Part shown: one piece after another, positions 1,613 to 15,581 of the stretch
Numbering within the stretch: the stretch's first letter is position 1
Layout of the letters: each line of letters begins with the position of its first letter
Assembly: GCA_020635255.1 (NCBI GenBank)
Contig: JACKAC010000001.1
Location: 976,814 to 1,000,813 of the forward strand
From: Ignavibacteriales bacterium
GTDB taxonomy: Bacteria; Bacteroidota; Ignavibacteria; Tepidaquicellales; Tepidaquicellaceae
Direction of reading: 5' to 3'
DNA length: 24,000 nucleotides
Notes under the pieces: model-generated
What the model was told of the DNA's origin: nothing
Seen by the model: only the letters and a program-made list of their open reading frames with translations
Databases searched by the model: none
Position numbers and translations under genes: made by a program

Positions 1613-1879
1613 TTTTTTCTTTCTTTAGTTTTGCGGTGCTTTCCTTACCGCTCTGATACAAATTATAAAAAATATGCCCTCTCCCCAAAGAAAGATTTCG
1701 CGATTGTCACAGTAAAATAGGAGATTGTTTTTACATGAGGTTAAGAATTAGGGAAGATGTTTAGAAAAATTAATTATCTATAATTCACCAAGGGTTTAAT
1801 AGATTAACGCCAAAAGTCCTGTAATAATAATTTTTTTTTCTTATTTTTATATTTTTTATATTCATAATTTCACCTATTG

Positions 1880-2569
1880 ATGACTAATCAAATTGATGAA
1901 AAAATAACACTTTTCAAAGAGGACATAAAATCACAGAAACTATCGCCAGAAGAAGTCTTTCAAAAGCATATAATTGATGGTAATTCATTTTTTTATGAAG
2001 TATATCAGAATGATTTAGATAGTGAGTATAAGGCAAAGAAGACTATTACTGATTTTCTGATAACGGATATTAATAATATAAGGATAATTGGTTCGGCCAA
2101 GTTAGGCTATAGCTTGAAGCCAAACAATTTATTTAAGTTGTTTGACGCAAAGTATGAAGAAACTAATCAAAATAAGGATAAGTCTGATATTGATATCGCT
2201 ATTATAGATGATATTGTGTTCGAAAGGATTAGTAAGAAATTATTTGAGTATACGAATTCATATTCTATGTCAGAAAGATGGTCGGAAAATGAATATTATA
2301 ATGGAAATAAATTAGATCGTTTCGAAGGCATTCCTTTATGTTTTAAATATTTTGAATATTATACAAAAGGGTGGTTTAGGCCTGATATGAAGCCTCAAGG
2401 ATTTGAAATATGTGACAATAGTAATTATGAAGAATTAAAAAAAATATTTTTTATGAATCATAAAAGAAAAATTAGTTTAGCAATTTATAAAAATTGGTTT
2501 TATTTTAAGGATTACCATTTAAATAATATTAAAAGCCTTTCATTTAGAATTCAAAGTGAAGTAATATGA
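1880..2569 (+). CDS. Hypothetical protein, possibly a polymerase-beta-fold nucleotidyltransferase-like protein
   Basis: ORF of about 229 aa (ATG at 1880, directly after the TTG at 1877 used by the track) in a strongly AT-rich island. The motif IIGSAKLGYSL...(22 aa)...SDIDIAIID resembles the NTase signature hG[GS]-x(n)-DhDh, but the spacer is longer than canonical, so the fold call is weak. Its stop overlaps the next gene's start (ATGA at 2566-2569). Confidence 0.55.
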   Translation: MTNQIDEKITLFKEDIKSQKLSPEEVFQKHIIDGNSFFYEVYQNDLDSEYKAKKTITDFLITDINNIRIIGSAKLGYSLKPNNLFKLFDAKYEETNQNKDKSDIDIAIIDDIVFERISKKLFEYTNSYSMSERWSENEYYNGNKLDRFEGIPLCFKYFEYYTKGWFRPDMKPQGFEICDNSNYEELKKIFFMNHKRKISLAIYKNWFYFKDYHLNNIKSLSFRIQSEVI

Positions 2570-3723
2570 AGAATGTAAAATTAGATTCTAGCATTCCCGC
2601 AAATAATATTAAAATTATTGAGATTTATAATAAACTAAAAAAAAATGAATTATATTTTGATAGGGGATATCAAAGAAAACTTGTTTGGAGAAAACAACAC
2701 AAATACAAATTTATTGAAACCATATTGCTTAATTTTCCATTTCCAGAGGTATATTTTGCTCCAGGAGAATTGAATACAGACAAACTTTTACTGAGTGATC
2801 AAGTGGTAGATGGACAACAACGTTTAACAACGATTTACAATTATATAGAGGAGAAGGATGTATTTGTGTATGAAAATCTTCCTATTAAAAAGTTTTCTGA
2901 ATTAGGGAAAGGTGAAAAAAATGAATTTCTAAATTATGAAGTATCAGTTAGATACTTGAAAAATGCTAATCATAAACAAATAAAAGAAATTTTTCAAAGA
3001 ATAAATAGTACAGAATATTCATTAAACGCAACAGAAAGAATAAATGCCCAATGGGGAGATAGTGAATTTATTTGTTTCTCGAAGCAAATAGTAGAAGTTG
3101 ACTTAGATATAGATTTAGATTTAATTAATTATAAAATATCTGAAGCAAACAGAACTTTCTTTGTAAATTTTTTCCATAAAAAGTATAATATTTTTACAGA
3201 AAATGATATTAATCGTATGTTAGCGCTTCAGTATATTTTAACTCTAGTAACAACATTGTGCGAGAAAGAATATTTTAGAAGAAACACTAAGGTTCAATCA
3301 TACATAGAAAACTATTTTGATGAATTTATTGATGCTGGGGAGGTTGAATTAAATTTGCTGGAAACTCTCAAATTTATAGATAACTTAAACCTGCCAGATA
3401 ATTCTTATTGGTTTAATAAGGCTAATATCTTTACACTTATAGTGGAGTGTTATAATTATAATTTGACTAGAGTTAATCCTGTTTTATTTAAAATGGAATT
3501 GGAGGAATTGGAATACTATAACTTAAATCATGATTTCGTTTTAATATTTAAAGAGGATATAGAGAGAGGACAACTTAAATTTGCAGAACCTGTAAAAATA
3601 CCTAAGGATATGATTAAGTATTTTGATTTAGCTAAGGAAGCTGTTAACGAAAAGAATTCTAGAGAATATAGGGGGAAAATGGTTAGAGAAATGTTAGATT
3701 CATCTTCAAAAGATGATGCTTAG
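2566..3723 (+). CDS. DUF262 (ParB/Srx-like, GmrSD N-terminal type) domain protein without a recognisable DUF1524/HNH module
   Basis: The N-terminus GYQRKLVWRKQHKYKFIETILLNFPFPEVYF ... VVDGQQRLTTIYNYI matches the DUF262 hallmarks (QR-x-x-VW and DGQQRLTT). No His-Me/HNH motif is seen in the C-terminal half. The gene has a 4-bp overlap with the upstream ORF and sits in the AT-rich island. Confidence 0.8.
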   Translation: MKNVKLDSSIPANNIKIIEIYNKLKKNELYFDRGYQRKLVWRKQHKYKFIETILLNFPFPEVYFAPGELNTDKLLLSDQVVDGQQRLTTIYNYIEEKDVFVYENLPIKKFSELGKGEKNEFLNYEVSVRYLKNANHKQIKEIFQRINSTEYSLNATERINAQWGDSEFICFSKQIVEVDLDIDLDLINYKISEANRTFFVNFFHKKYNIFTENDINRMLALQYILTLVTTLCEKEYFRRNTKVQSYIENYFDEFIDAGEVELNLLETLKFIDNLNLPDNSYWFNKANIFTLIVECYNYNLTRVNPVLFKMELEELEYYNLNHDFVLIFKEDIERGQLKFAEPVKIPKDMIKYFDLAKEAVNEKNSREYRGKMVREMLDSSSKDDA

Positions 3724-3829
3724 ATCTTTTTGGTTATAAAAATAGTTTCTATAAAAAAGTATATATACGTATCTAACCCTTTCTTCTTTGCATTAAAATA
3801 CCCTTCCCCTTAAATTCATATATTGAAAT

Positions 3830-3925
3830 CCCCTCCGATGGGTCAACGACTCGACTCGTAGAGAGGGGTGGTCCCGACAAAGTCGGGAGCGGGTCTATGA
3901 CCTCGTAGAGGGTGGGTTGACTTAG
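3830..3925. repeat. Cluster of GC-rich hairpin repeat modules (dispersed family)
   Basis: tcccgacaaagtcggga (3872-3888) is nearly identical to tcccgacaagtcggga at 11273-11288. gagggtgggttgacttag (3908-3925) is a diverged inverted copy of tagattcaacccacccc, which occurs at 9648, 11254 and 15521. Confidence 0.6.
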
Positions 3926-3958
3926 TATCCACACCCGCAATAAATCACACTACCACGA

Positions 3959-4765
3959 ATGAGATATAGGATCACGCTGTCATCTGACCAAACTCAGACA
4001 ATACCCATAAACTACCAGTACGAACTCTCACGTCTCGTCAATCGTACTATCAAAAACGGCAACCCGCGCCTCTCACGCTTCATACACGGCGGAGGTATCA
4101 GCTTCAACCGCAGGCAATACCGCGCTTTCACCTTCTCGCGCCTCTGGATTCCTAACCGTCAGATACTCAATAACCGCATTCTTATTATGCCCGGTGAGAT
4201 CAAATTCGTTTTCTCCACACCCAGCCTTATGATACGCGACGCTCTCTATGACGGACTCCTAAAGCGTGGTCCCTTCCGCGTCGGCTCCGCGGGCTTCCGT
4301 GTTACCGCGGTCGAAGACCGTGCTCAGCCTTACTTCGGACACCGCGCCCGCTTCACCACTCTCTCGCCCGTGGCGCTCTCCAAAAAGAAGGACTTCCGCC
4401 GTCCGCTCTCCGGCAAAAATGTAAAACAGACATACCTGCGCCCCGGCGACAGCTTCTTCAATAGCTTCCTCAAAAAAAGTCTCGAAAATAAATATATAGC
4501 TCACCGCGTTGCCAGAGGTGAGCCTCTCTCAAAATTCAAAAAACCCTTCTACAGATCTCTCATAGATCATATCAATATACGGGGCAGTCCGCGCCCCAAA
4601 CTCATCACAATAAAAGAAGGAACAAGGCAAAGCTACCGCGTTCCGTGCGCCCTGTTCGAGATCGAACTCACCGGCTCGCCCGCCATTATCGAATTTGCTT
4701 ACGACGCGGGCATCGGAAAACACACCTCGCTCGGCTTCGGATGCCTCGACACTTTGTCATGCTGA
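3959..4765 (+). CDS. cas6: CRISPR-associated endoribonuclease Cas6 (RAMP family)
   Basis: 268 aa. The N-terminus MRYRITLSSDQTQTIPINYQYELSRLV is a typical Cas6 start. An internal TTLSPVALS segment and the C-terminal glycine-rich loop AGIGKHTSLGFGCL (G-x-G...GFG) are also present. Codon usage is host-like (C-ending, matching the local strand bias), so the gene does not look recently acquired. Confidence 0.85.
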   Translation: MRYRITLSSDQTQTIPINYQYELSRLVNRTIKNGNPRLSRFIHGGGISFNRRQYRAFTFSRLWIPNRQILNNRILIMPGEIKFVFSTPSLMIRDALYDGLLKRGPFRVGSAGFRVTAVEDRAQPYFGHRARFTTLSPVALSKKKDFRRPLSGKNVKQTYLRPGDSFFNSFLKKSLENKYIAHRVARGEPLSKFKKPFYRSLIDHINIRGSPRPKLITIKEGTRQSYRVPCALFEIELTGSPAIIEFAYDAGIGKHTSLGFGCLDTLSC

Positions 4766-4809
4766 ACCTTGATTCAGCATCTAGATCATCCCCCCTTTAC
4801 AAAGGGGGG
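4759..4809 (+). terminator. Two consecutive hairpins after the cas6 stop (possible terminator or processing structure)
   Basis: atgctgaa(4759-4766)/ttcagcat(4773-4780) form an 8-bp stem that overlaps the TGA stop. It is followed by cccccctttacaaagggggg (4790-4809). No clear U-tract follows, so a terminator function is uncertain. The second hairpin recurs at 11112-11132. Confidence 0.3.
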
Positions 4810-4948
4810 AAAAGAGGGGGGTTAAATAAATAGCTTACCTCCGTTCTTTAACTAAGGGGGGTTAAATAAAAAACCTCACCTAATCAACCTACAAGCGGCA
4901 GGCTTTCTCCTTAGAAAGCATCCGTTCCGCGTTCCGTCCTTGACGGGA

Positions 4949-4969
4949 TTAGAACATGTGTAAATTGGG
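4949..4969 (+). repeat. 21-bp direct repeat, copy 1 (ttagaacatgtgtaaattggg)
   Basis: Matches 5417-5437 (ttggaacatgtgtaaagtggg) at 19 of 21 positions. The two copies bracket the tandem array. Confidence 0.7.
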
Positions 4970-4986
4970 ACAATAATTAAACGACT

Positions 4987-5042
4987 CGCCGTTGTTGGTG
5001 TTATAGGCGAAATAAAATGAGCCGTCACCAACAACACTATTA
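4987..5042 (+). repeat. 56-bp hairpin-containing direct repeat H1, abutting the left end of the tandem array
   Basis: cgccgttgttggtgttataggcgaaataaaatgagccgtcaccaacaacactatta. It holds a 10-bp perfect inverted repeat, gttgttggtg (4991-5000) / caccaacaac (5026-5035). It recurs at 5654-5708 with a single 1-nt deletion. Confidence 0.85.
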
Positions 5043-5411
5043 CTGTCACCGAACTTTTGCCGTAGGCACTCCTTCGGAGAAATCAACCTCAGAAGGAGAT
5101 TCGGGAAATTATTGTCACCGAACTTTTGCCGTAGGCACTCCTTCGGAGAAATCAACCTCAGAAGGAGATTCGGGAAATTATTGTCACCGAACTTTTGCCG
5201 TAGGCACTCCTTCGGAGAAATCAACCTCAGAAGGAGATTCGGGAAATTATTGTCACCGAACTTTTGCCGTAGGCACTCCTTCGGAGAAATCAACCTCAGA
5301 AGGAGATTCGGGAAATTATTGTCACCGAACTTTTGCCGTAGGCACTCCTTCGGAGAAATCAACCTCAGAAGGAGATTCGGGAAATTATTGTCACCGAACT
5401 TTAAATCAACC
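5038..5411 (+). repeat. Perfect 69-bp tandem repeat: five identical full units (5044-5388) plus a sixth unit with a 22-nt internal deletion (5389-5411)
   Basis: The unit is tgtcaccgaacttttgccgtaggcactccttcggagaaatcaacctcagaaggagattcgggaaattat. Unit starts at 5044, 5113, 5182, 5251 and 5320 were checked base by base and are identical. Each unit contains the 7-bp inverted repeat ctccttc/gaaggag with a 16-nt loop, plus ccgaa/ttcgg pairings. The period equals a typical CRISPR repeat plus spacer, but there is no variable part. Confidence 0.95.
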
Positions 5412-5416
5412 CATAC

Positions 5417-5437
5417 TTGGAACATGTGTAAAGTGGG
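5417..5437 (+). repeat. 21-bp direct repeat, copy 2
   Basis: See 4949-4969. This copy is also the left arm of an imperfect hairpin, gaacatgtg ... catatgttc (5420-5450). Confidence 0.7.
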
Positions 5438-5545
5438 CGGTCATATGTTCAGTGAGGCGCCGCGCCGTTCTTTAAATCAACCTACCATGGTGCAGAGTGA
5501 CTTCTGGCCATCATAGAAAAGTAAATAAGTTAAAATTAGGAGGGT

Positions 5546-5595
5546 CCGCGGGCTTCACGCTTGCCTCACCGCGTCAGCGAAGCCGGATCCCGCGG
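5546..5595. other. GC-rich compound hairpin in the non-coding tract
   Basis: Three stem segments separated by bulges: ccgcggg (5546-5552) pairs with cccgcgg (5589-5595), cttc (5553-5556) with gaag (5579-5582), and acgc (5557-5560) with gcgt (5571-5574). Function unknown. Confidence 0.4.
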
Positions 5596-5653
5596 GCTCT
5601 GAGCTTGTCCGGTTCCTTGTCATATTCATCACCTTGAGATTTCTCCCCAATTC

Positions 5654-5708
5654 CGCCGTTGTTGGTGTTATAGGCGAATAAAATGAGCCGTCACCAACAA
5701 CACTATTA
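5654..5708 (+). repeat. 55-bp hairpin-containing direct repeat H2 (second copy of H1)
   Basis: Identical to 4987-5042 except for one missing A in the loop (gcgaataaaatga versus gcgaaataaaatga). Confidence 0.85.
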
Positions 5709-5805
5709 AGATCTCTCCTCAATTTCTTCACTGAAGTTGACTTTTAAATTAGTTATCTTTGTTAATACATTACATAGCTAAGACAAAAATAACTATATAT
5801 AAATA

Positions 5806-8800
5806 ATGAGATTAGAAGATCTGACGGAAGAGCAGAGGGAGAAGATCTCCGAGTTTGGCGTTAATACATGGTTTGTGCTCGACCTCTTCAGCGATTATAA
5901 AAAAGACCCGTCATCCGTCAGCGATGACTGGAAGGACTTTTTCAAAGATTTCGATTCCGGTGAATTAGGTTTCCATACCAACGGCGGAAACGGTAAGCAA
6001 TTAACGCTTACCCCGTCACCCAAGCCTGCTCACAGAGAAGAAAGTAAGGTCGTGATGCCTAAGCCCGGCGAAGGCGAAGAGCCTGTCCTGATAAAAGGAG
6101 CCGGCGCCAGGATAATCGATAACATGACCGACTCACTGAGCATTCCGACGGCGACCACGTTTAGAGAACTCCCTGTTAAGCTCCTCGAAGAGAACAGGAT
6201 CGTCATAAACAATTTTCTCAAACAGACCGGCGGTGGTAAGATATCTTACACGCACATCATCGGCTGGGCAATCGTAAAAGCCATCGAGACCGTTCCTAAC
6301 ATGAATAACTCCTTCACTGTAATGGAGGGTCAGCCCTACCTGGTGAAAAAGCACGACGTCAATCTCGGTCTCGCTGTGGATATTCAAAAGAAAGACGGTT
6401 CACGTTCGCTGATAGTTCCCAATATAAAGAAGGCGAACGGGATGAACTTCAAAGAGTATTTCGACGCTTATAATGATATCATAGACCGTTCGCGCTCCGG
6501 TAAAATAGAGGTAGCCGATTTCCAGGGCACTTCCATTTCACTCACAAATCCCGGTACGATCGGCACCAGCGCTTCACACCCGCGACTTATGATGGGGCAG
6601 GGCGCGATAATCGCGACCGGCTCGATAGACTATCCGCCGGAGTTCCGCGCCGCCACAAAAGACGTTCTCGTCACGCTTGGCGTAAGTAAGGTCATGAACA
6701 TGACCAGCACTTATGACCACCGTATAATCCAGGGCGCTGAATCGGGTATATTCCTGAAACGCATCAACGATCTGCTAATGGGTCAGGATAATTTCTATGA
6801 TGAGATATTCCGCGACCTCAAAGTGAACGTCCTCCCGGTCTACTGGACCGAAGACGACAACGCCGAAGACTTCGTCGGTATCAACAGCATAAAGGAGATC
6901 GAGAAGCAGGCAAAGGTCATCCAGCTTATAAATATGTTCAGAGTACGCGGGCATTTGCAGGCACACCTTGACCCGCTCAGCGACGAGCCCAAGTATCACA
7001 AAGAACTCGACTCGTCTTATTACGGGCTCACGATCTGGGATTTCGACCGAGAATTCATCACAGATGGATTAGCAGGATTACGGACCGCATCGCTCCGTGA
7101 CATACTCGACATTCTGCTGGAGACATATTGCGGAAATATAGGGGTGGAATTTAAACATATACAGGACCCGGAAGAGAAAGAGTGGCTTCAATCGAAAATG
7201 GAGCCGGTAAGAAATAAACCGATACTGGATAACCGCGATAAAAAGAATATTCTCTATAAGCTGATGCAGGCTGAGAATTTCGAGAAGTTCATCGATCGCA
7301 AATACCTCGGTCACAAGAGATTCTCGCTGGAAGGCTCCGAAACGATAATCGCGGTGCTGGACCACTTGCTGAATATCGGCGCTGAAGCGGGCGTCGAGGA
7401 AATGGTGCTCGGCATGGCGCACAGAGGCAGACTTAACGTGCTGGCGAACATTATCGGTAAATCGATGCACGCGATATTCTCGGAATTCGAGGATAACGTG
7501 GAGCAGTCAGCGCAGGGAAGCGGTGACGTGAAATACCACCTTGGCGCGACCGGCACATACGAAACCATCCACGATAAAAAGATCAACGTAGCTGTAGCAT
7601 CTAACCCGAGCCATCTTGAATTTGTGAACCCGGTGGTAGAGGGTATAGTGAGAGCAAAACAGACCAGGCAGGATGACGCACAGCAGGATAAATTCGTGCC
7701 GGTATTATTGCATGGTGACGCGGCATTCGCGGGTGAGGGGATAGTGGCGGAGACGCTGAACCTCTCACAATTACAGGGGTACAGCACAGGCGGTACGGTG
7801 CACATCGTTATAAATAATCAAATAGGATTTACGACAGCGCCGGTGGACGCACGAAGCACGGTTTACGCGACGGACGTGGCGAAGATGGTGCAAGCGCCGA
7901 TATTCCATGTGAACGGTGACGACCCGGAAGCAACGATGTGGGTTACGCAACTTGCGTTCGAGTTCAGGCAGAAATTTAATAAGGACGTGGTGATAGACGT
8001 ATTCGGGTACAGGAGATTAGGGCATAATGAAACAGATGAGCCGGCATACACACAGCCATTGATGTATAAGAGGATACGGTCGATGCCATCGGTAGTAGAA
8101 AAGTATAAAGTGAAGCTATTAAAAGAGCAGGCGGTGACGGAAGATGAAGTGAAAGCGATGGAGCATGACATAGATGAGAAGATGGACAAAGATTATAATT
8201 TAGTGAAGAATAAAGATGCGGGTACATTCGAAGCGGATGCTCCACTCGCGGTGACTCAGGAAGAGATAAAAGAAAAAATGACCGCGGAGCCAACAAGGGT
8301 AAGCGCGGAGGAATTAGATAAGGTCGTGAATGCTCTTACAACAGTGCCGGAAGGATTTACGATACATCCGAAGCTGAAAAAGTTCGTTGAGAGCAGGGGA
8401 CACTTCCCGCAGGATGCGGACTTTAAAGTAGATTGGGCGTTTGCGGAGTCGCTGGCGTTTGGTACGCTGATGCTGGAGGGTACACCGATCAGATTGAGCG
8501 GGCAGGACAGCGCGAGGGGGACATTCTCGCAAAGACACGTGGTACTGACGGACGCAAATACAGGCGCGGAGATAATTCCTCTGAATCAGCTGGACACCCC
8601 GGCAAAAATAGAACCACTGGATAGTTTATTATCGGAGGCGGCGGTACTGGGATTCGAATACGGGTACAGCACGGCGGACCCGATAACACTGGTGATGTGG
8701 GAGGCGCAGTTCGGTGATTTTGCTAACGCGGCGCAGGTGATAATAGATAATTTCATAAGCTGTTCATATACAAAGTGGGATCTGCCGAATAACGTGGTAA

Positions 8801-9474
8801 TGCTATTACCGCACGCGCAGGAAGGTCAGGGACCGGAACACTCAAGCGCAAGACTGGAAAGATATTTAGCACTGTGCGCGGAGGATAACATGTTCGTAAC
8901 GAACCCGACGACTCCGGCGCAGTATTTTCATTTATTGAGGAGAAGAGCGAAAGCGAAATTCCCGAAACCGCTTATAATAATGACACCGAAGAGTTTACTC
9001 AGGGATAAGATGGCAGTATCCGTCGCGAAAGATTTCACGGACGGGCATTTTCATGAGGTACTAAATGACGAGAGATATTGGGCTGAAGGAAGCGAGAAAG
9101 GCAGAGAGAACGTGACGAGGGTAGTATTGACGAGCGGTAAGGTTTACTATGACCTGGTAAAGTACATGGAGAAAGAAAAAATAGAAGGTGTCGCGGTATT
9201 GAGAACGGAACAGTATTATCCATTCCCGGAAGAAACGCTGAAAGAGATGCTTGCGGGATATAAGAACGCAAAGGACGTGGTATGGGTACAGGAAGAGCCG
9301 GAGAATATGGGAGCGTGGTTATTCATGTCGCATAGACTTCCGAACGTACTGGCAAAGGGACAGAAGCTGGACTACGTAGGCAGGAAGGCGAGCGCAAGTC
9401 CTGCACCGGGAAGTAAGAGGAAGTTCGACTCGAGCCAGGAACTGTTGATGAAAAGGGCGTTTGGAGTAGAGTAA
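5806..9474 (+). CDS. kgd: Multifunctional 2-oxoglutarate dehydrogenase/decarboxylase E1 component with an N-terminal E2-like acyltransferase domain (Kgd/OdhA architecture)
   Basis: 1222 aa. The N-terminal part carries a 2-oxoacid dehydrogenase acyltransferase catalytic core (…SISLTNPGTIGT…STYDHRIIQGAESG…). The remainder is a typical E1o sequence (GMAHRGRLNVLAN, YHLG, HGDAAFAGEG, NNQIGFTT, GHNE.DEP, WEAQFGDFANGAQ-like WEAQFGDFANAAQ, QEEPENMGAW). Confidence 0.92.
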   Translation: MRLEDLTEEQREKISEFGVNTWFVLDLFSDYKKDPSSVSDDWKDFFKDFDSGELGFHTNGGNGKQLTLTPSPKPAHREESKVVMPKPGEGEEPVLIKGAGARIIDNMTDSLSIPTATTFRELPVKLLEENRIVINNFLKQTGGGKISYTHIIGWAIVKAIETVPNMNNSFTVMEGQPYLVKKHDVNLGLAVDIQKKDGSRSLIVPNIKKANGMNFKEYFDAYNDIIDRSRSGKIEVADFQGTSISLTNPGTIGTSASHPRLMMGQGAIIATGSIDYPPEFRAATKDVLVTLGVSKVMNMTSTYDHRIIQGAESGIFLKRINDLLMGQDNFYDEIFRDLKVNVLPVYWTEDDNAEDFVGINSIKEIEKQAKVIQLINMFRVRGHLQAHLDPLSDEPKYHKELDSSYYGLTIWDFDREFITDGLAGLRTASLRDILDILLETYCGNIGVEFKHIQDPEEKEWLQSKMEPVRNKPILDNRDKKNILYKLMQAENFEKFIDRKYLGHKRFSLEGSETIIAVLDHLLNIGAEAGVEEMVLGMAHRGRLNVLANIIGKSMHAIFSEFEDNVEQSAQGSGDVKYHLGATGTYETIHDKKINVAVASNPSHLEFVNPVVEGIVRAKQTRQDDAQQDKFVPVLLHGDAAFAGEGIVAETLNLSQLQGYSTGGTVHIVINNQIGFTTAPVDARSTVYATDVAKMVQAPIFHVNGDDPEATMWVTQLAFEFRQKFNKDVVIDVFGYRRLGHNETDEPAYTQPLMYKRIRSMPSVVEKYKVKLLKEQAVTEDEVKAMEHDIDEKMDKDYNLVKNKDAGTFEADAPLAVTQEEIKEKMTAEPTRVSAEELDKVVNALTTVPEGFTIHPKLKKFVESRGHFPQDADFKVDWAFAESLAFGTLMLEGTPIRLSGQDSARGTFSQRHVVLTDANTGAEIIPLNQLDTPAKIEPLDSLLSEAAVLGFEYGYSTADPITLVMWEAQFGDFANAAQVIIDNFISCSYTKWDLPNNVVMLLPHAQEGQGPEHSSARLERYLALCAEDNMFVTNPTTPAQYFHLLRRRAKAKFPKPLIIMTPKSLLRDKMAVSVAKDFTDGHFHEVLNDERYWAEGSEKGRENVTRVVLTSGKVYYDLVKYMEKEKIEGVAVLRTEQYYPFPEETLKEMLAGYKNAKDVVWVQEEPENMGAWLFMSHRLPNVLAKGQKLDYVGRKASASPAPGSKRKFDSSQELLMKRAFGVE

Positions 9475-9511
9475 ATAACCAGCAAGACACGGAGACATCT
9501 AAGAAAAAATG

Positions 9512-9745
9512 GATTCCCGCTTTCGCAGGAATGACAAACTAGAGATTCTTCGCTTCGCTCCCACGCTAAAGCGGGGCAGGCAGAATGACAAGAAATTTGA
9601 ATGACAGATAGACCCCGGGAGACCGGGGTTTTTTGTTGGTTTATGCTTAGATTCAACCCACCCCTCTCCCCGCAGGGACCGTAGGCAATAGGGGAGTTTT
9701 AGAATACCTCACCCCCAACCCCTCTCCTTGTAAAGGAGAGGGGAG
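9512..9745 (+). repeat. Intergenic mosaic of GC-rich hairpin repeat modules (kgd/selU convergent spacer)
   Basis: Modules shared with 10961-11319:
- gattcccgctttcgcaggaatgacaa...gagattcttcgcttcgctc (9512-9560 versus 11161-11208)
- cgctaaagcggggcagg (9564-9580 versus 10977-10993)
- tagattcaacccacccc (9648-9664, exact copies at 11254 and 15521)
- cctcacccccaacccctctccttgtaaaggagaggggag (9707-9745 versus 11007-11045, 34/39). Confidence 0.85.
9613..9634 (+). terminator. Rho-independent terminator downstream of kgd
   Basis: Stem ccccgg (9613-9618) / ccgggg (9623-9628) with a gaga loop, followed by six T (9629-9634). Confidence 0.7.
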
Positions 9746-10918
9746 TCAATTAATATTTAAAATTTGTAGTAGTTCCTGTTTTGCTTCAATTGGGTTGTCG
9801 TTGTTTATGACAGCGAGGGGAGTTTTATGTTTGTCTTTATAAATTTTGTCGTAGTATTTTACCATCATGAGTTCGGTGAATGTGTATGTGTCGCCTGATT
9901 CCAGGAGTGAGAGTGCGGTTGTGTATATTTCTTTGCTGAGACGGGATTTAAGAAATGATTCATTCTTCCTCATTATTTCGAGCATGCGTGTAATACCTTT
10001 ATTCCCTGCACCAAAGTAATCGTTAACAATCCTTTTAACACGAGATTCAAGCGAAGAGCCGACGCTTATCGACGGGCAGATCTTCATGGCATTAAATAGG
10101 CTTTTAGGAATGAAGAAGTCGCCTACTTTTTTTGATTCGCTTTCGATTAGATATGTGCTGTGATACTCCGGGAGTTTTTTAATCCCGCGTATGATATCGC
10201 CGTAGATATTGTTTTCAAAGGAAGATTGGTTGTGTATGGGTTCATAATTGAGATTATCATAAGGAACCTGTCCGAATATGCTAGAATAGTGGCGTGCGGA
10301 TAACTCAAGATCGATGACAGGGAAATCGTTTTTCACTGAATTAAGGAGCTCAGTCTTCCCAGAGCCTGTGAGACCGGAGAGTTCGATAAGTCCGAACGGA
10401 ATAGTATTCATCGAAAAAAGTTCAACGACGAGAGAACGGTAGGCTTTAAAACCGCCTTCAATGCGTGATGGTGAATAGCCCAGGTCAGAGATCATCTTAG
10501 CGAGATAACTGGACCGTCCGCCTCCGCGCCAACAGTAGACAAGGATATTCTTATTTTTTGCATCGTGTTCATCGAGGAAGCGAGCGAGTTCGTCCGATTT
10601 CGGGTCGGCATATTGCATAGCGAGCCACACGGCGGCTTGCTGGGAATATTTTTTATAAATTAGTCCCGTGAAATGGCGTTCGATAGTTGTCAGGACAGGG
10701 AAATTGATAGCACCGGGGAGGTGAGATATATCGAATTCTTTTTCGGAGCGTCCGTCGATGAGCAGAGTGTTGTCATTATATAGAAGAGGGATAGCTTCAG
10801 ACGCAGAGTAGAGCTTCCAGTCATATTTCTTGAAAATATCTTTTAATGAAGGTACACTGCTGTCAACAACACCTCTGATAAAAGAGAATAGATCTTTTTC
10901 CGATTCAAATTGTTTCAT
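9746..10918 (-). CDS. selU: tRNA 2-selenouridine synthase (rhodanese plus P-loop domains)
   Basis: Rhodanese active-site loop CWRGGGRSS and Walker A GLTGSGKT in the SelU/MnmH arrangement. The track starts at GTG 10933. I prefer ATG 10918 (MKQFESEKD...) because a relic copy of exactly this start (ATGAAACAGTTTGAAACGGAA) sits 2 nt after the selD stop. Confidence 0.88.
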   Translation of the reverse strand: MKQFESEKDLFSFIRGVVDSSVPSLKDIFKKYDWKLYSASEAIPLLYNDNTLLIDGRSEKEFDISHLPGAINFPVLTTIERHFTGLIYKKYSQQAAVWLAMQYADPKSDELARFLDEHDAKNKNILVYCWRGGGRSSYLAKMISDLGYSPSRIEGGFKAYRSLVVELFSMNTIPFGLIELSGLTGSGKTELLNSVKNDFPVIDLELSARHYSSIFGQVPYDNLNYEPIHNQSSFENNIYGDIIRGIKKLPEYHSTYLIESESKKVGDFFIPKSLFNAMKICPSISVGSSLESRVKRIVNDYFGAGNKGITRMLEIMRKNESFLKSRLSKEIYTTALSLLESGDTYTFTELMMVKYYDKIYKDKHKTPLAVINNDNPIEAKQELLQILNIN

Positions 10919-10960
10919 AAAAGAATATACCACAAATTATCACAAATTTTTACGAATTTT

Positions 10961-11319
10961 GCTTGTTGGTGATCGCCGCTAAAGCGGGACAGGTAACACC
11001 GCTTAACCTCACCCCCACCCCCTCTCCTTAGTAAGGAGAAGGGAGCTTGGAGTAGATATTATTTTGTTTCCATCTTATTTTTTTAACCCCCGTCCCGATT
11101 TCATCGAGACACCCCCCTTTGTAAAAGGGGGGATTATTCTTCTTGTTCGGAAAGGGAGAGGATTCCCGCTTTCGCGGGAATGACAAAATGAGATTCTTCG
11201 CTCCGCTCAGAATGACAAAGAATACTCAGAATGACAAAATGTTAATGAAAAGCTAGATTCAACCCACCCCGTTCCCGACAAGTCGGGACCACCCCTCCGT
11301 CGGAGGGGAGTGAATTCCC
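10961..11319 (+). repeat. Intergenic mosaic of GC-rich hairpin repeat modules inserted between selD and selU
   Basis: It contains the modules listed for 9512-9745 in a different order. It also has cccccctttgtaaaagggggg (11112-11132, compare 4790-4809), tcccgacaagtcggga (11273-11288, compare 3872-3888), cccctccgtcggagggg (11292-11308, exact copy at 15552-15568) and three agaatgacaa motifs. Confidence 0.85.
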
Positions 11320-15377: not shown

Positions 15378-15390
15378 AATTTTATAAATG

Positions 15391-15414
15391 CTTGTTGGTG
15401 ATAACACCAACAAG
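15391..15414. repeat. Perfect 10-bp-stem hairpin of the ttgttggtg family
   Basis: cttgttggtg ataa caccaacaag. The same arm sequence (g/c)ttgttggtg occurs in H1/H2 (4991, 5658) and at 10962-10971. Confidence 0.6.
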
Positions 15415-15447
15415 GGCAGAATAAATAACACTATATTCGGTGATTGT

Positions 15448-15477: not shown

Positions 15478-15520
15478 GTTTAGCTCTGCCGGGTTTACTT
15501 ATGGGAGCAATTTTAAAGGT

Positions 15521-15568
15521 TAGATTCAACCCACCCCCCGCCTACGGCGTACCCCTCCGTCGGAGGGG
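15521..15568 (+). repeat. GC-rich hairpin repeat modules
   Basis: tagattcaacccacccc (15521-15537) and cccctccgtcggagggg (15552-15568) are exact copies of modules at 11254-11270 and 11292-11308. The cgcctacggcg between them contains the reverse complement of gccgtaggc, which is found in the 69-bp tandem unit. Confidence 0.8.
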
Positions 15569-15581
15569 ATTGGAAAATATT

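Follow-up and report, generated by a model that had tools for sequence, protein, structure and literature searches.

CreTA and CreR elements, known from CRISPR systems, lie within or beside a Cascade-encoding type I operon. Their one or two repeat-like sequences, which are related to the cognate CRISPR repeat, give an 8-nt 5' and a 22-nt 3' handle, and their spacer-like segment is partly complementary to a nearby promoter with a protospacer adjacent motif (PAM). In the type III toxin-antitoxin locus ToxIN, an endoribonuclease gene lies beside identical, folding tandem repeats of about 36 nt, which reportedly precede the toxin gene in one operon with it; in this class, which includes CptIN and TenpIN, the nuclease cuts the repeat RNA to give units that inhibit it. 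Also comparable are orphan or remnant cas loci in defence islands and intergenic variable-number tandem repeats (VNTRs), for example those of the mycobacterial interspersed repetitive unit (MIRU) type. Here, we evaluate a locus in which an orphan cas6 gene is followed, on the same strand, by five identical 69-bp tandem units. It is located in a 24,000-nt stretch of DNA from an Ignavibacteriales bacterium (contig JACKAC010000001.1, positions 976,814 to 1,000,813 of the forward strand), which we call the window and whose numbering is used throughout unless a comparison contig is named. We consider it probable that the array is a young, lineage-specific minisatellite lying 3' of an orphan cas6b gene, in non-coding DNA of a remnant cas locus, and the sequence evidence identifies it neither as a Cas6 substrate nor as an antitoxin. 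The more interesting feature of the locus is not the array but the structured region around it, together with a short motif that recurs there and with the exchange of cas6 alleles and adjoining defence cassettes described below. Two loci were used for comparison: L011, a 362-kb JGI contig that carries the Cas6 homologue P0002, and L016, an HKST-UBA122 contig of a sister lineage (labelled Ignavibacteriae bacterium HKST-UBA122).

The 69-bp tandem array

The array lies on the + strand at 5044-5402 and contains 5.2 perfect copies of its unit. Tandem Repeats Finder (TRF) gave a period of 69 bp, 5.3 copies and 99% matches over 5039-5402, periodicity was perfect across 5044-5402 (359 nt), and the five units counted from 5044 are base-for-base identical, which confirms the five perfect units reported downstream of cas6 in a preliminary description of this DNA. 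The first unit starts 279 bp past the cas6 stop codon, beyond a conserved block (block A) and a hairpin insertion (hp56) that are detailed below. Because the whole 69-bp unit is invariant, with no differing spacers, the earlier view that this is not an adaptive array stands. What had been taken for a sixth, internally deleted unit is better read as flanking ancestral sequence, since its AAATCAACCCATACTTGGAA is conserved in L011, where there is no array.

A 14-nt direct repeat, TGTCACCGAACTTT, bounds the array at both ends; the periodic span equals 5 x 69 + 14 nt, and therefore this repeat bounds the unit as well. The identity of the units and the direct repeat at their bounds point to repeat-mediated duplication. 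Each unit consists of CACCGAACTTT, a 22-nt insert, AAATCAACCT and a further 27 nt, and contains ACCGAACTTT and AAATCAACCT, the two halves of what we call the R motif, split by the insert. The undivided motif, ACCGAACTTT joined to AAATCAACCT, is intact at two sites in the window, R2 and R3, and at the R3 site of L011. The insert is palindromic and creates the main hairpin of each unit. The units had been said to be able to fold, and structure prediction agreed: besides a 7+3-bp stem (CTCCTTC.GAG/CTC.GAAGGAG), each forms two hairpins, one at the junction (TTCGG..CCGAA) and a small one of GCC/GGC. Three units folded far better than shuffled sequences, with z scores of -5.1 (+ strand) and -6.4 (- strand).

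The array was then considered against the comparison loci. L011 keeps cas6 (59-62% identity), the C6 hairpin that follows the gene, and blocks A and B, yet lacks the array; no 69-bp tandem repeat is present there, and homology to the unit is limited to short motifs. At L016, cas6 and sucA are separated by only 204 bp, which contain an inverted C6/G6 hairpin and no array. Since it is absent from both loci, the array appears to be confined to one lineage. In the window, it occupies the stretch between blocks A and B that does not align with L011, directly after the hp56 insertion. Head-to-tail identical units, the 14-nt TGTCACCGAACTTT at both ends and absence from both L011 and L016 are what a minisatellite is expected to show. 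Like intergenic VNTRs, the array has perfect head-to-tail copies, a unit of tens of bp and short direct-repeat bounds, is missing from orthologous loci and is unresolved in short-read assemblies; it differs from them in that its unit derives from a conserved motif 3' of cas6 and in that every unit is highly structured.

The explanation that we favour draws on direct observations of the array's anatomy, its absence from relatives, the conservation and covariation of its flanks, and its behaviour in assemblies. In this scheme, an orphan Cas6b-type gene of an uncultured Ignavibacteria species would occupy a defence-island hot spot, and the roughly 1 kb of non-coding DNA that trails it on the same strand includes the conserved C6/G6 hairpin and blocks A and B. 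A local paralogue of the conserved R motif, split by the 22-nt palindromic insert, would have formed the ancestral 69-bp segment, and this segment, lying between copies of TGTCACCGAACTTT, would then have been amplified by replication slippage or unequal crossing-over. The resulting array would be carried passively. The preliminary description had also offered another reading, in which a CRISPR-cas locus decayed and its remnant then grew into a minisatellite. Most of the evidence fits that suggestion, with the addition that part of the "remnant" appears to be under purifying selection and looks like structured RNA.

Several points weigh against a passive minisatellite. Unit identity does not exclude function, because functional arrays of the ToxI type are also near-identical. 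The units fold strongly, each displays AAAUCAAC in a hairpin loop, and both species have this loop motif at four conserved positions as well, one of them in the 5' untranslated region (5'UTR) of cas6. The array-free L011 is not a clean test, because its cas6 is truncated and frameshifted. Finally, the covariation in the flanks comes from two sequences, and only two species carry this cas6 lineage.

The cas6 gene and its genomic setting

The cas6 gene (3959-4765, +) encodes a Cas6b-type protein of 268 aa. Pfam matched it to Cas6_I-A (PF21350, 9.7e-15) and Cas_Cas6_C (PF01881, 1.5e-18), its two RAMP-type domains both being Cas6 profile matches, and the best PADLOC model was Cas6b (2.7e-47). The nearest solved structures were PDB 5YI6 and P. 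furiosus Cas6 (PfCas6; 3PKM), to which the window protein aligned over its full length. The open reading frame (ORF) is full length, the Gly-rich C-terminal loop GIGKHTSLGFG is present, and G251, G253, G259, F260 and G261 are invariant in Cas6 alignment A2. The confident assignment of this gene to Cas6 was thus borne out by profiles, structures and loop alike. The catalytic residues of PfCas6 are Tyr31, His46 and Lys52, and catalytic residues differ among Cas6 families. In the alignment to 3PKM, His46 is kept (as His43), but Lys52 corresponds to Arg55 and Tyr31 to Asn29, so that the nuclease activity of the window Cas6 is uncertain.

The gene had been described as having native codon and strand bias. 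Its base composition is indeed host-like (GC 0.52, GC3 0.62), but its strand bias is not: coding-strand GC skew is -0.25 in cas6, versus +0.14 to +0.37 in every + strand neighbour. Comparison of the window and L011 genes gave a dN of 0.33, a saturated pS of 0.77 and a third-codon-position identity of 40%. By these measures (dN 0.33, dS saturated), the window cas6 lineage is maintained as an orphan under purifying selection.

No other cas gene was found in the window, in 6 kb further upstream (contig L001) or in 10 kb further downstream (contig L045). The span without further cas genes, which begins about 10 kb upstream of cas6 and extends 29 kb downstream of it, is also without a CRISPR array, and the gene is therein neither encoded in a cas operon nor placed beside a CRISPR array. 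The earlier statement that cas6 stands alone therefore extends to this span, and all that we say on missing cas and effector genes covers -10 kb to +29 kb around cas6. In an exhaustive HMMER search that returned 1,200 Cas6 homologues, only P0002 exceeded 36% identity (59-62%). A word-indexed search for the lineage gave three matches; no relatives of the lineage were present in the genome contig collection, and the metagenome contig collection held one match, at 27%. Because these searches yielded so few relatives, comparative inference is limited to two species, those of the window and L011, plus L016.

The homologues with 25-36% identity belong to Ignavibacteria, Chlorobi-like bacteria and Bacteroidota, and on those contigs that are long, cas6 opens a type I-B-like operon (Cas3, DevR/Cas7) or a type III-A operon (Cas10, Csm2, RAMPs). 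Because these homologues head cas operons, we infer that an operon was lost here, and the window cas6 is most likely what is left of a type I-B or type III cas operon that it once headed. Around the canonical relatives, L023-L026 showed no CRISPR array up to 10 kb on either side of cas6, and L038-L044 showed none. One further non-canonical setting for the Cas6 family was noted at L038 1061-3024, a 6-kb contig without other cas genes on which the homologue P0163 overlaps a downstream gene with tetratricopeptide (TPR) repeats.

In L011, cas6 (9992-10753) also stands alone, with a type II restriction-modification pair before it and pheT after it. About 26 N-terminal residues, including IPINYQY, have been lost, the gene is frameshifted relative to the ancestral ATG, and it carries a 12-residue in-frame insertion resembling a nearby GC-rich hairpin repeat (CCCGCT.GCCCCT.CGGGGCTT.AGCGG) that is also found at L011 9776-9812. 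These changes suggest that the L011 gene may have been inactivated recently. The L016 locus is different. Its sucA and downstream genes are 91-97% identical to the window at the DNA level, and the SucA protein is 99% identical, but the cas6 at the same site (P0004, 3142-3948) is a different orphan allele, only 34% identical to that of the window. The window and L016 genes have in common the start context ACACTACCACGA(A)TG and an upstream element, and AACTACCACAAATTATG occurs in L011. The difference between the two alleles looks like whole-cassette replacement.

The segment to the left of cas6 varies in a similar way. It holds an NsnA-like DUF262 protein and a 230-aa protein in the window (1877-3723; AT-rich, GC about 0.26), an OLD-family ATPase-TOPRIM protein and a 229-aa protein in L016 (266-2893), and a type II methylase with a DUF262-HNH restriction enzyme in L011 (7024-9645). 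The defence cassette beside cas6 is therefore different in each of the three genomes, and it is AT-rich in them. On gene content, the region left of cas6 is a cassette hot spot within a defence island, and cas6 alleles and neighbouring defence cassettes appear to have been swapped between near-identical genomes, which makes the locus hypervariable. The right edge of the variable segment is the sucA upstream region (5709-5805, +), which is 97% identical to L016 4052-4200. In the 1,222-aa product of the adjacent sucA (5806-9474), an E2 acyltransferase domain is fused to the E1 component of 2-oxoglutarate dehydrogenase, an architecture of the Kgd/OdhA type that is better known from Actinobacteria.

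The locus as a whole resembles other orphan or remnant cas loci in defence islands, with a single cas gene, no adaptation or effector genes, adjoining variable defence cassettes and, in the relative L011, a truncated cas6 copy. It differs from these in that the window cas6 lineage is under purifying selection, and in that the gene travels with conserved, structured non-coding blocks to two chromosomal sites (sucA in the window and pheT in L011).

Conserved sequence elements around cas6

Just 3' of the cas6 stop codon is a C6/G6 hairpin element, CCCCCCTTTACAAAGGGGGG-AAAAGA-GGGGGGTTAAATAAA, followed by a partial second copy (4791-4870, +). The element, which has the form C6-TTT..AAA-G6 and then a second G6, adjoins cas6 only, and in this position it is 86% identical between window and L011. 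It is present once in the window, three times in L011 (10812-10857, 11062-11107 and 11515-11555), where the copies bracket blocks A and B, and once, inverted, in L016 (3958-3996). Five matches to a G6-N-G6 pattern in viral contigs all lacked the C6 arm and were rejected as unrelated.

Block A (4875-4975, +) contains the motif TAATCAACCTAC, a GCGG..CCGC clamp, two hairpins and GATTAGAA..ATTGGGA. When the window and L011 sequences, aligned by hand inspection, were folded jointly with RNAalifold, 16 pairs were obtained, six of them compensatory, with an energy of -17.7 kcal/mol on the + strand versus -14.05 on the - strand. Block B (5403-5625, +) includes R2 (5393-5411), R3 (5465-5482), a mini-ORF and then a conserved AT-rich stretch, CATCATAGAAAAGTAAATAAGTTAAAATTAGG, followed by a long hairpin (about 5541-5602). 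It matched L011 by blastn at 71% over 93 nt (E 2e-7), with additional runs of 17/17 and 18/19 nt. For this block, RNAalifold gave 36 pairs with 10 double compensatory changes (-32.3 kcal/mol) on the + strand and 27 pairs with four compensatory changes (-21.6 kcal/mol) on the - strand. Folding of the whole block B region was no better than that of shuffles (z +0.8, +1.2), and the alignment-based covariation alone is informative there. The mini-ORF starts from the conserved ACCATG of block B and has 9 sense codons in the window (5487-5516) and 11 in L011 (11335-11370); its sequence is not conserved, and it has no consecutive rare codons.

Because synonymous sites are saturated between window and L011, neutral DNA should no longer align, and the conserved non-coding blocks are thus likely to be under selection. 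No reading frame is conserved between the two across these blocks. We take this as a lead, rather than as proof, that the cas6 lineage is accompanied by a selected, structured non-coding region of about 350 nt, most likely an RNA on the cas6 strand. Our best guess is that it would be a cis-regulatory or crRNA-like (CRISPR RNA-like) RNA inherited from the lost operon. Rfam matched nothing in the window at the gathering threshold; around cas6, matches at E <= 10 were at chance level, with no family common to window and L011. A tRNA/tmRNA scan found none. No terminator-like site was predicted in 3600-5900, and the 3' region is presumably co-transcribed with cas6. A sigma-70 scan gave three promoter-like sites versus 2.2 expected and, like the terminator scan, was uninformative.

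Besides occupying the hairpin loop of each array unit, the recurring motif of about 13 nt, AAATCAACCTACCA (also given as AAAUCAACC), is found at R2 and R3, where block A starts, and in the cas6 5'UTR. The 5'UTR copy, AAATCACACTACCA, was detected by motif scan just before the cas6 ATG (3942-3955, +). Four positions match between window and L011, namely R3 (by motif scan), R2 (by blastn), and the block A start and 5'UTR (by inspection). An integration host factor (IHF) site was considered for this motif and rejected; the motif fits the WATCAA core but not the TTR part.

A conserved, promoter- or operator-like element, GTATATATACGTATCTAACCCTTT (3759-3782, +), which contains the near-palindrome TATATAC-GTATCTA, forms the left boundary of the cas6 module. 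It is identical to L011 9902-9925 at 23 of 24 nt (96%), and is 85% identical over 41 nt to L016 2919-2959. The element is upstream of all three cas6 genes, its 14-bp palindrome is perfect in L011 (TAGATAC-GTATCTA), and an inverted second copy in L016 (70-114) flanks the OLD cassette. This palindromic element possibly serves as an operator, or else as a site at which cassettes are exchanged by recombination.

Small repeats are common in the vicinity. An insertion of about 100 bp that resembles a miniature inverted-repeat transposable element (MITE) lies in the cas6 5'UTR (3829-3926) and is 91% identical, in inverted orientation, to a sequence downstream of sucA in L016 (7970-8066); the cas6 leaders of L011 and L016 lack it. 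The 56-bp nested hairpin element hp56 occurs twice in the window, as copy 1 (4987-5042, +), which abuts the array, and as copy 2 (5654-5708, +), and is absent from L011 and L016. Copy 2 is flanked by a ~17-bp duplication of AGATYTCTCCYCAATT (5628-5652; 5709 onward), unusually long for a target-site duplication, and its uninterrupted target is found at L016 4046-4070. Further small, dispersed repeats that resemble MITEs or repetitive extragenic palindromic (REP) elements were seen at 9508-9560, 10922-10973, 11110-11237, 15389-15430 and 15515-15570. Since the genome is rich in small mobile repeats, local repeat turnover would be ordinary here.

Alternative explanations and implications

The most serious rival to a minisatellite, although we judge it unlikely, is a degenerate mini-CRISPR of the CreA/CreR kind. 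The R motifs would then be decayed repeats, the intervening conserved RNA would guide an effector encoded elsewhere, and the five units would stem from recombination between repeats that duplicated one repeat-spacer unit. Three direct copies of a ~20-nt core (ACCGAACTTTAAATCAACC) do lie beside cas6, with 69 nt from the split R1 to R2 and 71 nt from R2 to R3. The array unit allows a division into a 38-nt hairpin "repeat", with AUUCGGGA at its end, and a 31-nt "spacer", the core on the - strand ends in ATTTAAAG, one mismatch from the common handle ATTGAAAG, and block B appears to be under selection. Its mini-ORF, followed by a stable hairpin, loosely recalls CreT-type minigenes. For type I-B systems, published work describes mini-arrays next to cas6 whose repeats are very degenerate, and the window has in common with them non-coding, cas6-adjacent elements with very degenerate repeat-like motifs at CRISPR-like spacing (PMC8501985; bioRxiv 10.1101/2023.03.03.530964).

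Against this, there are no Cascade or effector genes in the surveyed span, and the window differs from CreTA/CreR in having no nearby Cascade genes, known cognate repeat or detectable target; nor does the block B mini-ORF have the sequence conservation or consecutive rare codons that would strengthen the likeness. Outside the 20-nt core, R3 compared with the 38-nt "repeat" is near chance (21/38 in the window, 15/38 in L011), and there is no Rfam CRISPR-DR match at E <= 10. No self-targeting by unit or block sequences was detected; the "spacers" have no match of >= 11 nt elsewhere in the window or in viral contigs and none of >= 9 nt to the cas6 upstream region, seeds of 5+5 nt being below the reach of that test. 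Exact-pattern scans of viral contigs for the unit hairpin, the two "spacer" halves and the R3 motif found nothing, and BLAST of the 1,041-bp intergenic region gave no phage match and, among plasmids, one 37-nt chance match (Nostoc). The predicted structure, moreover, prefers the + strand, but it is the - strand that carries the handle-like ending.

Less well supported is the proposal of the preliminary description, a Cas6-processed, multi-copy RNA array that would partner Cas6 as antitoxin, decoy or regulator in the manner of ToxIN. An endoribonuclease gene beside about 5.x identical, folding tandem repeats is indeed a likeness to ToxIN. Array and cas6 are on the same strand with no predicted terminator between them, the identical units fold strongly, the unit-loop motif recurs in the cas6 5'UTR and conserved blocks, and the orphan gene is retained under purifying selection. 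However, the description itself held that relatives keeping cas6 without the array would speak against the proposal, and L011 is such a relative; L016, with its swapped allele, likewise has cas6 and no array, so that the array is missing at both comparable loci. The nuclease family is unrelated to that of ToxIN, since the protein matches only Cas6 families and is not a ToxN/AbiQ/CptN/TenpN-type toxin, and it has Asn in place of the catalytic Tyr31 in the alignment to PfCas6. The 69-nt repeats are longer than those of ToxIN (about 36 nt), they lie downstream rather than upstream of the gene, 279 bp away and past a conserved block and a hairpin insertion, and their linkage to it is not conserved. 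Among the papers searched, none pairs Cas6 with a type III toxin-antitoxin system. We therefore regard a ToxIN- or CreA-like, Cas6-processed array as improbable.

It is similarly doubtful that the copy number, and perhaps the perfect identity of the units, is a product of assembly; on that reading, the genome would hold a short duplication of at least 2.3 copies, and the five units would stem from gap filling or from the way the repeat was resolved. Identical Cas6 and SucA proteins are encoded on many metagenome contigs of this one species (ENA, NCBI metagenome-assembled genome GCA_020437435.1, Logan), and none of these other assemblies reproduces five units. The array has 1.3 copies in L007 and L033 and 2.3 in L005, it contains 100-N gaps in L001, L002 and L009, contigs L003, L004 and L008 stop inside it, and three others (L034, L036 and L037) start exactly at window position 5403. 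Copy counts of 1.3, 2.3 or 5.2, or gaps, may reflect assembly collapse rather than biology, since short-read assemblies collapse, gap or break at this site. Gapped scaffolds, with breaks on both sides, show that the true array exceeds what reads or k-mers can bridge, which argues for several copies rather than fewer, and at least 2.3 contiguous copies were assembled independently (L003, L005). Accordingly, the five-copy count is not reproducible, but the repeat itself is real.

We also considered a more speculative possibility, to which we assign low probability, namely that the orphan Cas6 and the conserved, co-oriented structured RNA form a self-contained, CRISPR-independent module able to move from one defence-island hot spot to another. 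The motif recognised by Cas6 would be of the AAAUCAACCUACCA type and would lie in the gene's own 5'UTR, in blocks A and B and, in this lineage, in the five amplified hairpin units; Cas6 would process this RNA or be titrated by it, as in autoregulation or in an antitoxin or decoy role.

That the array encodes a repetitive small protein, as its length of 23 codons per unit, three of six open frames and ORFs crossing it (5017-5475 and 5112-5516 on the + strand, 4949-5425 on the - strand) might suggest, was rejected for both array and blocks as extremely improbable, because Pfam gave no stretch that passes alone for any listed family, no peptide is common with L011 in any frame, and the conserved flanking nucleotides change frame between window and L011.

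If true, a Cas6-based counterpart of type III toxin-antitoxin systems, or a CreA-like array lacking an effector, would put a CRISPR nuclease to a new use, but the comparative evidence opposes it. The locus instead serves as a worked example that perfect repeats with a CRISPR period beside a cas gene can be a young minisatellite. The orphan cas6, with its approximately 350 nt of structured non-coding sequence, represents a testable candidate for a non-canonical partnership between Cas6 and RNA.

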